Shown: piece after piece, positions 1,046 through 55,500 of the stretch
How the letters are laid out: each line of letters opens with the position of its first letter
Numbering within the stretch: the first letter of the stretch is position 1
Source of the DNA: Candidatus Latescibacterota bacterium
Lineage (GTDB): Bacteria; Latescibacterota; UBA2968; GCA-2709665
Direction of reading: 5' to 3'
Length of the DNA: 64,000 bases
NCBI GenBank assembly: GCA_965226795.1
Contig: CBDDDZ010000003.1
Coordinates: 512,001 to 576,000 of the forward strand
The notes under the pieces: model-generated
Database searches by the model: none
The model's input: only the letters and a program-made list of their open reading frames with translations
What the model was told of the DNA's origin: nothing
Program-made: the position numbers and the translations under genes

Positions 1046-1220
1046 GGGGGTTTTTCCGCGTCATTCCATTCAGCAACGACGCATTTGATCGCCGACGGCC
1101 CTGGCAGGGCAACGACGCTTGTATTCTCGTGTGCGCCATTTCGCGGAAAAACCAGCCCTGCGGCGTCTGAGCAGCGCCGTTCTTTTTGGTCCTTTTTCTT
1201 AGGCGAATAAGAAAAAGGAC
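1046..1220 (+). repeat. Structured dispersed element, subtype A, copy A1 (no 33-bp insert)
   Basis: GGTTTTTCCGCG...81 nt...CGCGGAAAAACC stem, then CGCC-GTTCTTTTTG-GTCCTTTTTCTT-AGGCGAAT-AAGAAAAAGGAC pseudoknot. Confidence 0.9.
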
Positions 1221-6187: not shown

Positions 6188-6393
6188 GGGGGGTTTTTCC
6201 GCGCGATTCCGTTCAGCACGGTTGCTTAGTGAATGCATCGAGGTGGTCAGGGCAGGGTTTCACGGTGCCTCCACAGAGGAAGTTCGCGGAAAAACCAGCC
6301 CTGCGGCGTCTGAGCAGCCTGCCTGCGCCGAGCCGTGCTCGGCAGGCAGGCGCCGTTCTTTTTGGCCCTTTTTCTTAGGCGAAGAAAAAGGGC
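6188..6393 (+). repeat. Structured dispersed element copy A2 (33-bp palindrome insert at 6318-6350)
   Basis: Same stem, 81-nt loop and pseudoknot as A1; insert CCTGCCTGCGCCGAGCCGTGCTCGGCAGGCAGG. Confidence 0.9.
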
Positions 6394-10775: not shown

Positions 10776-10982
10776 GCCCTTTTTCTTGCTTCGCCCAAGA
10801 AAAAGGGCGAAAAAGAAGGGCGCCTGCCTGCCGAGCACGGCTCGGCGCAGGCAGGCCGCTCGGCGCGGGGCCGGTTTTTCCGTGAATTTCCTCAGTAGTG
10901 GAATTGGAAATCGGGTGGCCTATGAGCCCTCCAGGAGCTGCCGGTGTACGGAGATTTACGGAAGAACACGGAAAAACCCCCC
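10776..10982 (-). repeat. Structured dispersed element copy A3
   Basis: Stem variant CCGTG/CACGG, 82-nt loop, 33-bp insert, pseudoknot CGCCC/GGGCG. Confidence 0.9.
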
Positions 10983-11144
10983 GCTCCACCTCCGTCCGGT
11001 CATTAGTTATTCCTTGAAGTTCTGACGAGCGGAATGGCGCTTGTACCGCTCTTTGCTGTATGCCGATAGTTATCTGCCAAATGCTGACCGCTGATCGCTC
11101 CTCACCCCCAGGAAACCCCACCGTTCTCTAACACGATGCCTCTT

Positions 11145-11338
11145 GAGAGGACTACCAGAGCAGGGCGCGTTTTTCCGTCCCGCTCCAAATTACGATTTCC
11201 TCCGTGGTTGGCAGGGCAGCGGATTGGGTGGGTCCCGTGAAGTAATTCGCGCCATGCATAAAACAGGCCCCGCGCCCAGCGGCGACTTTTGGTTCCTTTT
11301 GGTCGCTTCAAAAGGAACACGCCGTAGGCAGGGAATTT
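11145..11338 (+). repeat. Structured dispersed element subtype B, copy B1
   Basis: GCAGGGCGCG/CGCGCCATGC stem, 78-nt loop with the same boxes, GCGAC-TTTTG-GTTCCTTTTG-GTCGC-TT-CAAAAGGAAC pseudoknot. Confidence 0.9.
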
Positions 11339-13551: not shown

Positions 13552-13759
13552 GCCCTTTTTCTTGCATCGCCAAAGAAAAAGGGCGAAAAAGAAGGGCGCC
13601 TGCCTGCCGAGCACGGCTCGGCGCAGGCAGGCCGCTCAGACGTCGCGGGGCTGCTCTTCCGCGAATCGCTTCACGGGAGATTACCAGCGTCGTTTCCCTG
13701 CGGCCCATTGGAGCGATCCGGAACCACATTGCTGGACGGATTACCGCGGAAAAGCCCCC
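13552..13759 (-). repeat. Structured dispersed element copy A4
   Basis: Same architecture, 81-nt loop, 33-bp insert. Confidence 0.9.
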
Positions 13760-13894
13760 GCCCCGCCTTCGGGCGGGCGAGAGTTGGTCTGGATAAGACC
13801 GCCGCTTGTGCTTGTACCGCCTTTAGCCGACAGCTTACGGCTGATAGATCCTCGCTCACGGAATACCGATGTAAATACACTCGAAATGCCTTTC

Positions 13895-14090
13895 GAGAGG
13901 ACTGCCAGAGCAGAGCGCGCGGTTCCGTCCAGCAGCTCGGCCCCTGATATTCACCATTGTTTGCAGGGCAGCAGATCCCGTGTATCCCGTGAGATAATTC
14001 GCGCTGTGCATATGGCAGGCCCCGCGCCTAGCGGCGACTTTTGGTTCCTTTTGGTCGCTTCAAAAGGAACCCGCCGGAGGCAGGGAATTC
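13895..14090 (+). repeat. Structured dispersed element copy B2
   Basis: Same architecture as B1, 80-nt loop. Confidence 0.9.
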
Positions 14091-21951: not shown

Positions 21952-22157
21952 GTCCTTTTTCTTTCTCGCCAAAGAAAAAGGACCAAAAAGAACGGCGCCT
22001 GCCTGCCGAGCACGGCTCGGCGCAGGCAGGCCGCTCAGACGTCGCGGGGCTGCTTTTCCGCGAATCGCCTCAGGGGCATGAACTTGGGTTGATGGCCTGC
22101 CGACATCGAGGGCGTTTATAGGCCGTATTGCTGGACGGAAAAACGCGGAAAAGCCCC
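21952..22157 (-). repeat. Structured dispersed element copy A5
   Basis: GCTTTTCCGCG/CGCGGAAAAGC stem, 81-nt loop, insert, pseudoknot. Confidence 0.9.
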
Positions 22158-22225
22158 TTCCACCTCCGGGCGGGTGAAGGACGAAACCGAGAGGCCGCGA
22201 ACCCCCTGGTGCCGTCGTTGCATTT

Positions 22226-22357
22226 GTAGGGGCAACCCCTTGGGTTGCCCTCATCGTGGCGCGCAATTAGCCGATTGACTTTGCCAGGCCATATCGTTTG
22301 CCGGGTTTGGCTGACTGCTGATCGTGGATTCGCGGGCGACGCATGCGTCGCCCCTAC
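22226..22357. repeat. Inverted pair of GTAG-type REP-like palindromes (REPIN-like)
   Basis: GTAGGGGCAACCCCTTGGGTTGCCC at 22226 and GGGCGACGCATGCGTCGCCCCTAC at 22334. Confidence 0.8.
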
Positions 22358-22498
22358 GAATGCTACGTCGGCATCGCCATCTGTTAATAGATTTCACCGG
22401 GCCGTATCGGTAACCGGTTTTAGCTGACGGCTAACTACTGATCGCCTATTGCTGCTCGTCCACAGGAACCCACGCGGACTACGAAAGCGATTCCATTC

Positions 22499-22692
22499 GA
22501 GAGCGCGTTCAGAGCAGAGCGCGCGGTTCCGTCCCGCACCGAACAACGGTATCCGCCTTATCCGGTAGGGCAGAGGATCATGTGCATCCCGTGAGGCAAT
22601 TCGCGCTGTGTATATGGCAGGCTCCGCGCCAAGCGGCGACTTTTGGTTCCTTTTGGTCGCGTCAAAAGGAACTCGCCGAAGGCAGGGAATTT
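22499..22692 (+). repeat. Structured dispersed element copy B3
   Basis: Same architecture as B1/B2, 78-nt loop. Confidence 0.9.
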
Positions 22693-42320: not shown

Positions 42321-42344
42321 GTAGGGGCGGTTCGCGAACCGCCC
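42321..42344 (+). repeat. GTAG-type REP-like palindrome
   Basis: GTAGGGGCGGTTCGCGAACCGCCC; identical inverted copy at 55303-55326. Confidence 0.8.
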
Positions 42345-42593
42345 GCCTTGTGGATCCTCAAGTTTCATCCCTCGGCCACCCGGTGGTGGCGCGAGGGCTT
42401 TTGTTCGCGGCATAAAACGTGCCGCTCACCATCAGCCTCGAACGCCAACACCAGGCGTCCCCTGTTGTCCCGATAAACCTCCGGAACAACAGGTCACCCG
42501 CTACGCGGGCGGACGTAGATTCCGCGCTCTATCACACAACATCACTATCGTACCGAACCTCGTGAGGTACTATCAAGCTTACGGTTGTGGTGT

Positions 42594-42799
42594 GGGGGGT
42601 TTTTCCGTGTTCATCCGACCAGCACCGTAGTATTGGTACAGTTAAGGAGCCTGTAGGCCACCCAATTTCCGCTTATGCCCCTGAGGTGATTCACGGAAAA
42701 ACCGGCTCCGCGCCGAGCGGCCTGCCTGCGCCGAGCCGTGCTCGGCAGGCAGGCGCGGTTCTTTTTGGTCCTTTTTCTTACGCGAATAAGAAAAAGGAC
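42594..42799 (+). repeat. Structured dispersed element copy A6
   Basis: CCGTG/CACGG stem, 82-nt loop, insert; pseudoknot helix changed compensatorily to CGCG/CGCG. Confidence 0.9.
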
Positions 42800-43116
42800 G
42801 AAGAGGAAAAAAGTTGAAGTGAGAGGTAAAGTCTGTGTTGCCCCGAACGCAGTTCCAAAAAAATAGCCGTGAGAGGGAAGATGGGAAAAGTAAGAGGACC
42901 ACACCGCACTCGCGCTCCTCTAAGCGATTCTTTTCAAACTGAATATTGCGAGAATCCGATTGCGGACGCCTCACCTGTCAAAGTTGCCAACACCTCTATC
43001 GTCTTCCCTCTCACGGCCTCTCGAAAAAGGGCAAGGGAATAGGGGACGTCAGGGGGTGGGGAAGATTCTAACTTACCTGTGGCGAAACATGAGCGTTTCG
43101 ACAAGTCCAATAGTGA

Positions 43117-48043: not shown

Positions 48044-48130
48044 TCATCGCTTTCACGATAGAAACCACATGGCCGAAGCGCATGTTATCTCAACCTTTTC
48101 CCGAATCCGCGAGGAATTTTCATGGTCTGA

Positions 48131-48278
48131 GATTCAGGCAGGTCTTCTGGCTCCTGGATCACCTGGTTCTCGCGCCTTCCCGGTTTTAACCAGTGGCATC
48201 GCGGCGAGAAACATCCCCAGTTACAGCGGCGGGACCGCAACGGATTTTAACCGTTTTCCCTATTTTGTAACCTGAATC
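48131..48278 (-). ncRNA. Cobalamin riboswitch
   Basis: Minus strand AGGGAAAACGGTTAAAATCCG, CCCGCCGCTGTAA, GCCACTGG...CCGGGAAGGC, B12 box AGCCAGAAGACCTGCC; closing GATTCAGG/CCTGAATC helix. Confidence 0.95.
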
Positions 48279-48561
48279 CGGAATTACTATGGCAATGTCG
48301 TGTTATCTAAATGTGGAAAATCCTCCCGTGAATGGCCCCTGTGGTGAATCGTGAGCCGACCCAACGAAGGCGAACCGTAATCTATGGATACGAAATATAC
48401 GCCGCTGATTCCATAACATCAAGAACTTTGTTTCTAATCGCTCAGTGTCTGGTCTGTTCGGGAACAGCACGTCTCCGGCTGTCGGCCTTCAAGGGTCGGA
48501 TTCCTGCAGCCATTCGGGTGTCTGCCGGCGAGTTGGCAACTGAGTGTTACTGGATGATGGG

Positions 48562-55046: not shown

Positions 55047-55255
55047 GCCCTTTTTCTTGCATCGCCCAAGAAAAAGGGCGAAAAAGAAGGGCGCCTGCCT
55101 GCCGAGCACGTCTCGGCGCAGGCAGGCCGCTCAGACGCCGCGGGGCTGCTTTTCCGCGAATCGCCTCAGTGGTTCACACGTACGGAAATGCCCTGCAAAT
55201 TCCAGCGGTTTACAAATGCCAAGGTGCTGGACGGAAAAACGCGGAAAAACCCCCC
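55047..55255 (-). repeat. Structured dispersed element copy A7
   Basis: Same architecture, 81-nt loop, insert with one substitution. Confidence 0.9.
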
Positions 55256-55355
55256 ACGTCCCCATTGGGTGGCCGAGAGCCAAAACTGAGAGGCCACAAG
55301 GCGGGCGGTTCGCGAACCGCCCCTACAACAATGTGACATCCGCGATATTGACATC

Positions 55356-55500
55356 GCGGCGACTTTTGGTTCCTTTTGGTCGCTTCAAAAGGAACTTGCC
55401 GAAGGCAGGGAATTTGGGGTGATGTTGAATTTGGTTTAGACTTTTGATTCCTTAACGCGCCCCTAGGCGCGGGGCCGGTTTTTCCGCGAACTGCCTCAGA
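55356..55500. repeat. Partial element copies (B pseudoknot 55356-55415; A fragment 55466-55500)
   Basis: GCGGCGACTTTTGGTTCCTTTTGGTCGCTTCAAAAGGAAC and GGCGCGGGGCCGGTTTTTCCGCGAA. Confidence 0.8.

Follow-up and report, generated by a model that had tools for sequence, protein, structure and literature searches.

A dispersed two-armed intergenic repeat of Candidatus Latescibacterota with a head predicted to fold as a triple-helical pseudoknot

The module described here occupies positions 42754-42799 of a 64-kb window, by which we mean the whole stretch of DNA that was analysed (64,000 nucleotides). This copy is situated inside a gene run that includes a cobalamin riboswitch (window positions 48120-48290) upstream of genes for a periplasmic binding protein, a TonB receptor, dockerin-like and Cache-domain proteins, and an ABC transporter. 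The module, hereafter called a head, occurs in two types. The window contains seven A heads and four B heads, and the whole 5.41-Mb genome (G000, with the window on contig C3) contains 78 A heads and 32 B heads (Table 1). All of these heads (110/110) lie between predicted genes, which we called using our own hexamer model. When the genome was scanned de novo for the pseudoknot-plus-triplex geometry, after pre-filtering to regions with T runs and A runs, 102 matches were obtained, every one of which belonged to families A and B. TM-like motifs form a separate family in this genome, with 27 copies. The A heads have no preferred orientation relative to the upstream gene (40 on the same strand and 38 on the opposite strand), and solo A heads show no clear bias with respect to the leading and lagging strands (24 vs 12, with 22 unclear). 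Downstream of one A head elsewhere (G000:C5:3016044), a small ORF reads C-x-x-stop (TGA) and then continues in frame; we take it to resemble an Rdx-type selenoprotein.

Table 1. Coordinates of the head at 42754-42799, its neighbouring modules, and other copies within the window.
Feature	Position	Strand	Remarks
A head, solo	1175..1220	+	
A head, solo, loop 3 deleted	6351..6393	+	G013 and G008 lack it at the orthologous spacer
Back-to-back doublet	10776..11318	.	A head 10776-10822 (-), B head 11283-11318 (+)
Back-to-back doublet	13552..14070	.	A head 13552-13598 (-), B head 14035-14070 (+)
Back-to-back doublet	21952..22672	.	A head 21952-21997 (-), B head 22637-22672 (+)
GTAG-type REP palindrome upstream of the arm	42321..42344	+	RAYT genes are flanked by REPs of this class
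Another optional module of the repeat mosaic	42424..42520	+	21 genome copies
Arm	42598..42703	+	82-nt loop closed by a 12-bp stem (42598-42609 paired with 42692-42703); common to A and B
Optional 31-nt palindromic insertion plus GC duplication (33 nt in all)	42722..42752	.	46/78 A copies
S1a, 5' half of pseudoknot stem S1 (4 bp)	42754..42757	+	CGCG at this copy; the majority have CGCC
Loop 1, predicted third strand	42759..42766	+	7 T.A-T and 1 C.G-C triples with 42788-42795
S2a, pyrimidine strand of the 13-bp stem	42768..42780	+	
S1b (CGCG), inside the loop of stem 2	42781..42784	+	Followed by 2-nt loop 3, AA, 42785-42786
S2b, purine side of stem 2 and middle strand of the predicted triplex	42787..42799	+	
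Conserved tail past the knot	42800..42858	+	C(GCA)G triloop hairpin at 42845-42855
Purine/pyrimidine inverted-repeat insert (42866-43022), then the remnant tail from an earlier A head (43023-43061)	42866..43061	+	
Back-to-back doublet, shortened B arm	55047..55395	.	A head 55047-55093 (-), B head 55360-55395 (+)

The segments of the head follow one another in the order S1a, loop 1, S2a, S1b, S2b, as in a preliminary description made from the sequence, with a single G on either side of loop 1 (TTCTTTTT, 42759-42766). That description gave stem 2 a length of 10 bp; the hairpin is present, but at this copy it measures 13 bp. Folded as DNA, stem 2 has a z-score of -4.1, and 0 of 200 shuffles folded as well. 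The hairpin of the tail (42845-42855) is weak when folded alone (z = -0.5). Both S1 strands read CGCG in this copy (42754-42757 and 42781-42784), a joint change that had been pointed out from the outset, and S1 covariation extends to the larger set of genome copies. We collected 77 forward hairpins anchored on the stem 2 core alone, leaving S1 and loop 1 unconstrained. Loop 1 was found upstream in 74/77, and S1 covaried in 73 of the 74 scorable copies (S1 position 4 against S1b position 1: C-G in 56, G-C in 17, G-G in one, and three unscorable). The outer pair of stem 2 was G-C/G-C in 37 of these hairpins and G-T/A-C in 35, and the inner pair was G-C in 38, T-A in 21, A-T in 14, and other in four. 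An extension of S1 to CGCCC/GGGCG had also been proposed, but it is not conserved, and the base in question is the one that pairs and covaries with S2b as this inner pair.

Further support for the two stems came from a 13-row alignment, in which 93.6% of cells were paired and the covariation score exceeded those of 500/500 shuffles and of all slid controls, the rows being related to each other and one of them misaligned by a deletion. Across phyla the outer S1 pair was T-A (86), C-G (6), G-C (4), T-G (2), or unpaired (15). S1 and S2 are interleaved and both covary well beyond the window, in agreement with the H-type pseudoknot that was originally suggested. Matches L047, L055, L068, and L116 keep loop 1 and stem 2 with a 4-nt loop that leaves no room for S1; three Firmicutes records are among such matches.

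Loop 1 had been predicted to track S2b as the third strand of a parallel pyrimidine triple helix, and this is supported by three-way covariation. A metagenome scan in which loop 1 and most of stem 2 were left free yielded 133 matches, of which 89 had a stem of at least 7 bp and 44 were dropped. Loop 1 was in register with the purine strand from the first base, with at least six triples, in 66 of 72 distinct modules, whereas permuting loop 1 among modules placed on average 24.9 and at most 37 of them in register (5,000 trials); these are counts of related modules rather than of independent events. Approximately ten matched loop 1/S2b patterns occur in the metagenomes, with zero, one, or two C.G-C triples. 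The C of loop 1 shifts, doubles, and vanishes together with its G, and several matched patterns are found side by side in one Polaromonas genome. A reversed control pattern gave 0 matches in 15/15 genomes. Neither slippage nor fold-back copying would produce a loop 1 that is complementary to S2b in parallel orientation, so we infer that selection acts on the three-stranded structure. Taken as predictions from sequence comparison, both the knot and the triplex are well supported.

Upstream of the head lies the arm, whose stem is 11-12 bp long and covaries among the genome copies. The arm loop (42610-42691 here) is 81-82 nt long in 66/72 copies; 44 loops of 81 nt have a mean identity of 54%. The loop contains three short conserved motifs approximately 36 nt apart. 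No covariation was detected within the loop, and its mean folding z-score was near 0. A small protein encoded by the loop was rejected as a candidate, with stops in 18-36 of the 44 loops in all six frames and no codon-position bias. We also rejected loop segments as guides: approximately 150 segments gave 17 short matches outside the elements (a count with no shuffled control), two of them from one duplicated locus and the others 16-23 nt long. A conserved tail of 60-80 nt follows stem 2 in the genome copies, which indicates that the head is not the terminus of the repeat.

The element is embedded in a mosaic of other repeats. The 31-nt palindrome before the head occupies this same site in 46 of its 50 genome copies, some contigs skip 33 nt here, and in relatives other palindromes with the same ends stand in its place. 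GTAG REPs are present in 33/73 element-bearing intergenic regions compared with 20/349 others, and the module at 42424-42520 in 13/73 compared with 2/349; other repeat families are also enriched in element-bearing spacers. An intact head directly precedes a tail of the 43023-43061 type in two of five congeners. An element with purine-rich/pyrimidine-rich inverted ends has repeatedly taken the place of heads, whether A or B (window positions 42866-43061, L389:6041-7119, G000 C3:12484, and C2:406331), and this element also interrupts TM-type triplex motifs.

The single internal non-canonical pairs of stem 2 in the metagenome modules are G.T in 95 cases, A.C in five, and other in 15. This excess of G.T over A.C identifies the pyrimidine-first strand as the folded strand. 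A purine-motif triplex on the opposite strand, as the preliminary description envisaged, is possible in principle, but it is not the strand to which these mismatches point. The flanks of 210 modules contain 236 C(GNA)G triloops with stems of at least 3 bp on the folded strand; the opposite strand contains 50, shuffled sequences contain 19, and distant flanks 16/17. The corresponding numbers for the folded strand, the opposite strand, and shuffles are 36, 25, and 24 for GNRA tetraloops and 2, 22, and 4 for cUNCGg loops. The triloop hairpins comprise 96 distinct sequences in 147/210 modules, with each of the four bases represented in the middle position, and a conserved flank motif bears a hairpin of variable stem length that is mostly GNA-capped. 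In the genome under study, triloops on the folded and opposite strands number 36 and 0 for B and 21 and 4 for A; their density is 0.96 per kb in A arms (2.6-fold over a background of 0.36) and 4.0 in B, and the weakness of the excess in A arms speaks against DNA. The triloop of the B tail occurs with all four middle bases, and that of the A tail is found in approximately 15 copies, including the one at 42845-42855. An rRNA operon used as a control had 11 GNRA loops, five cUNCGg loops, and no C(GNA)G triloop, and none was found in 75 terminator-like hairpins (0/75). An extraordinary stability has been described for GCGNAGC mini-hairpins made of DNA, and a far lower one for a related RNA hairpin (PMC13037366). 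Because of the triloop signature, DNA appears to be ahead of RNA as the folding polymer, although not far ahead, and RNA is a serious rival; a comparative-genomics paper cautions that motifs of single-stranded DNA are not easily told from RNA motifs by computation (PMC5737381).

If the folding polymer were RNA, the arm could be a non-coding RNA with a structure of its own, or could pass through an RNA intermediate recopied by a reverse transcriptase, with a telomerase-like U.A-U/C.G-C pseudoknot near its 3' end and with the doublets as divergent transcription units. We consider this rather unlikely. An abundance of G.U-type wobbles (95 vs 5) suits RNA at least as well as DNA, folding of an RNA alignment of the Polaromonas arm prefers the same strand (-67 vs -50), and reverse-transcriptase genes are present in the genome. 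The commonest head, found in 53/87 modules, has 7-8 triples followed by six further base pairs and zero unpaired linker. The deep-groove crossing rule of A-form RNA pseudoknots fits a linker of 0-1 nt with approximately six further pairs, which again favours RNA. The H-type topology with a parallel pyrimidine triplex also falls into the RNA-compatible class of the scheme laid out in the openly readable part of PMC4666352. Against this stand the loops of the arms themselves, which are C(GNA)G triloops with no clear enrichment of GNRA or UNCG, and the lack of orientation of heads to genes. The nearest heads are more than approximately 40 kb from the four main reverse-transcriptase loci, and one reverse transcriptase inspected by eye looks to be of the group II intron type. 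An Rfam search of the window and 20 homologous loci found nothing over the arm or head at the gathering score, the only matches there being at chance-level E-values. The summed contig depth of the module was approximately 19-120x that of flanking genes in five RNA runs and 79-117x in three runs of unrecorded type with even cover, with no excess beyond copy number; depth of contigs cannot show expression level, strand, or ends.

The preliminary description had cast the module as one that protects the 3' end of an RNA. That role is not supported, given the conserved sequence running 60-80 nt past S2b, together with the missing gene orientation, the DNA-type triloops in the arms, and the absence of a + strand promoter or terminator consensus around the copy at 42754-42799. 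The protein-binding role predicted alongside it is plausible.

Heads frequently occur in pairs. In the genome under study, 25/32 B heads stand back to back with an A head within 1 kb, and none face one. Head pairs in other phyla show the same arrangement (26 back to back, one facing, and four in tandem). Among 30 heads of Polaromonas there are 14 doublets, each joining two different head types and with a mean identity among doublets of 86% (up to 98.7%), and among 13 heads of Variovorax there are six doublets. No target-site duplication was found at the 14 Polaromonas doublets, where direct repeats within a doublet's own flanks (4-7 nt) were no longer than those between unrelated flanks; the ends of the element are imprecise, so a short target duplication could escape this comparison. 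A search for recent intragenomic duplicates that could fix the ends recovered only two larger segmental duplications, and sharp ends were not found for the element.

In four doublets (L169, L179, L450, and L453) low-GC cargo genes lie between the arms. The doublet at L453:4635-6420 encloses two low-GC ORFs, each followed by an attC-like site, which we take to resemble the integron attC consensus; these sites fold no better than shuffles. The cargo of L450:607-1640 is a 298-aa ORF with an R-x4-H motif and no Pfam match, that of L179:1223-1612 is a DUF6896 gene, and L169:1190-1880 has matches to the C4 and isrK RNAs together with a small ORF. Two further sets of candidates were discarded. A dense cluster in G013, considered as a cassette array, proved to be a local duplication, and the wide head pairs of L451 and L452 proved to be separate elements around ordinary genes.

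The distribution of heads is patchy. Copy number ranges from 3 to 78 within the genus, and the sister family is at control level. Among 61 genomes of another family it ranges from 0 to 30, with none found in 40. Orthologous spacers of congeners carry different elements or none; in five congeners, the spacer that corresponds to the copy at 42754-42799 contains an A, an A, a truncated A, a B, and nothing. A scan of genome collections with loop 1 fixed located heads in Beta-, Gamma-, and Deltaproteobacteria, Bacteroidota, Firmicutes, Gemmatimonadota, and Latescibacterota, at a minimum of 110 loci. Among the matches listed, the named assemblies with the most similar heads belong to Candidatus Latescibacterota and Gemmatimonadota. 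Four scans of viral contigs gave 0, 1, 5, and 6 true heads, the loosest of them after 116/122 matches missing a stem of 7 bp had been dropped, and searches of plasmids and phages gave three short matches, 0 and 0. One of the viral contigs, 7.5 kb long, has a head approximately 160 nt from the end of an IS110 transposase gene (L017:115-1339).

Within chromosomes, the copies are concentrated on the origin side. Only 8/110 copies fall in the terminus-side 45.5% of the genome under study, and the dnaA-proximal half holds 34/46, 46/58, and 18/21 copies in three congeners. Origin-side clustering of triplex repeats is also noted for E. coli MG1655 in the openly readable part of PMC4666352. Together with the near absence from plasmids and phages and the shuffling of heads and arms at orthologous sites, this clustering would be consistent with host-selected chromosomal sites that serve replication, recombination, or nucleoid organisation near the origin and that are spread passively by recombination between repeats. 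Such an origin is improbable in our view, as no heads were found in 40/61 genomes of one family, the sister family is at control level, and positions differ between congeners. It is more improbable still that the knot is a by-product of an ordinary palindromic repeat with pyrimidine runs that merely resemble a triplex, because loop 1 covaries in register with both strands of stem 2 and the reversed pattern has no matches, even though S1 is just 4-5 bp long with few covarying positions, some Firmicutes matches have a 4-nt loop too small for S1, and the BoxC/PIT work, as far as its openly readable text goes, found no stable triplex in vivo for the related E. coli motif (PMC4666352).

We searched for an enzyme that could move the element. 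No recurring mobile family was found among 120 neighbouring ORFs, no shared neighbour among 1077 clustered ORFs, and no heads near Y1/RAYT loci (0/22). The genome's own intact RAYT is flanked by its own GTAG REPs and not by heads, and RAYT-like genes occur in 13/19 genomes of the head-less sister family, so RAYT was rejected as a partner. The genome (95.9% complete) has no match to TnpB or four-helix-bundle genes, and TnpA lies beside no head. A RAYT-like Y1 domain was observed in frame within a DNA methylase-like ORF of approximately 1200 aa (L011:13396-16977; twice in G000 C2), and similar long Y1/methylase-like frames are present in G008, G010, and G016. In a congener, a gene of the DUF559 nuclease family is framed by BoxC/TM-type triplex repeats (L140:10200-10960), which shows that small nuclease genes can lie between triplex repeats, although the repeat there is a different one.

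With little more than even confidence, we interpret the 46 bases as part of a dispersed, non-coding repeat with two arms, in which they form the outer head of one arm; its single-stranded DNA knot would be recognised by an enzyme acting in trans. The pyrimidine-first strand would fold, probably as single-stranded DNA and while the DNA is transiently unwound, into a pseudoknot with 7-9 parallel T.A-T and C.G-C triples. The knot would likely be a recognition or stop structure for the putative enzyme that copies the repeat, and the element would be actively mobilised in the manner of REP/BIME. A broader proposal is more tentative, and we place it clearly short of an even chance. In it, the heads define a cross-phylum class of mobile elements with natural single-stranded DNA pseudoknots containing a triple helix of 7-9 layers at their ends, a three-stranded structure that is itself under selection, and the asymmetric back-to-back doublets are moved by a recombinase or nuclease of a family new to repeats and may carry single foreign genes and integron-like cassettes.

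Several known systems resemble the element in part. In the telomerase RNA core pseudoknot, SAM-II, preQ1-II, and MALAT1-type folds, loop 1 lies in the major groove of stem 2, and C.G-C triples interrupt runs of U.A-U. The head is alike in that the same placement of loop 1 is predicted, with a C.G-C triple interrupting the T.A-T run; it differs in being multi-copy and presumably mobile, with a longer run of triples that is not at a 3' end. The ends of IS200/IS605 elements and the scaffolds of TnpB guide RNAs likewise place a structured single strand with long-range pairing at the end of an element (guide pairing is described in the accessible part of PMC8266576). Unlike those, the ends here are inverted homologues, with no TnpB in the genome and no TnpA beside heads. 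A MITE of a DDE transposase was rejected, as the element is without sharp terminal inverted repeats or target-site duplication. Subtype B presumably resembles the R200 family of Pseudomonas fluorescens. R200 is a 320-bp intergenic family with an origin left unexplained in the openly readable part of its description (PMC2718517). We found no description of the present repeat in openly readable text, though the original list of H. influenzae PITs and the R200 consensus might overlap with it.

The BoxC/PIT/TM repeats are similar in being intergenic bacterial repeats with one triplex-capable strand, a patchy distribution among kin, and no tie to the function of neighbouring genes, as far as the openly readable part of PMC4666352 describes them. 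In the scheme of that paper, judged from the same part, the head would count as class IV when one strand is read and as class II when the opposite strand is, but its sequence does not fit the G/C-rich class II consensus of BoxC/TM. The TM motif is G/C-rich and purine-type, with neither a pseudoknot stem nor a long arm, whereas the head is A/T-rich, pyrimidine-type, and knotted, with three-way covariation. Heads occur in Haemophilus, and the 21 H. influenzae PITs of an earlier study, cited in the accessible text of PMC4666352, could include this head. Whether intrastrand triplexes form and act in bacterial genomes has been open since BoxC/PIT, and joint change of all three strands provides comparative evidence of selection on such a structure. 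The 46-mer makes the triplex directly testable. If DNA, it would be a natural knotted DNA triplex; if RNA, it would be a bacterial triple helix of unusual length, part of a multi-copy RNA that has not been catalogued. In either case, the repeat is widespread, able to enclose foreign genes, and without a known mover.

The closest parallel in behaviour is provided by REP/BIME/REPIN sequences, which also have many intergenic copies, two inverse units around a variable linker, mosaics, and single-strand folding, according to the openly readable parts of PMC8266576 and PMC3337134, and with which this element co-occurs in the form of GTAG REPs. The units differ, as REPs are palindromes of 20-50 nt that form hairpins, whereas the arms described here are 200-250 nt long and carry a predicted pseudoknot with a triplex; the head also has no GTAG foot, and no RAYT is flanked by heads. 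The element falls outside REP/BIME, BoxC/PIT/TM, MITEs, IS200/IS605, and Rfam families in its make-up, and it behaves like REP/BIME.
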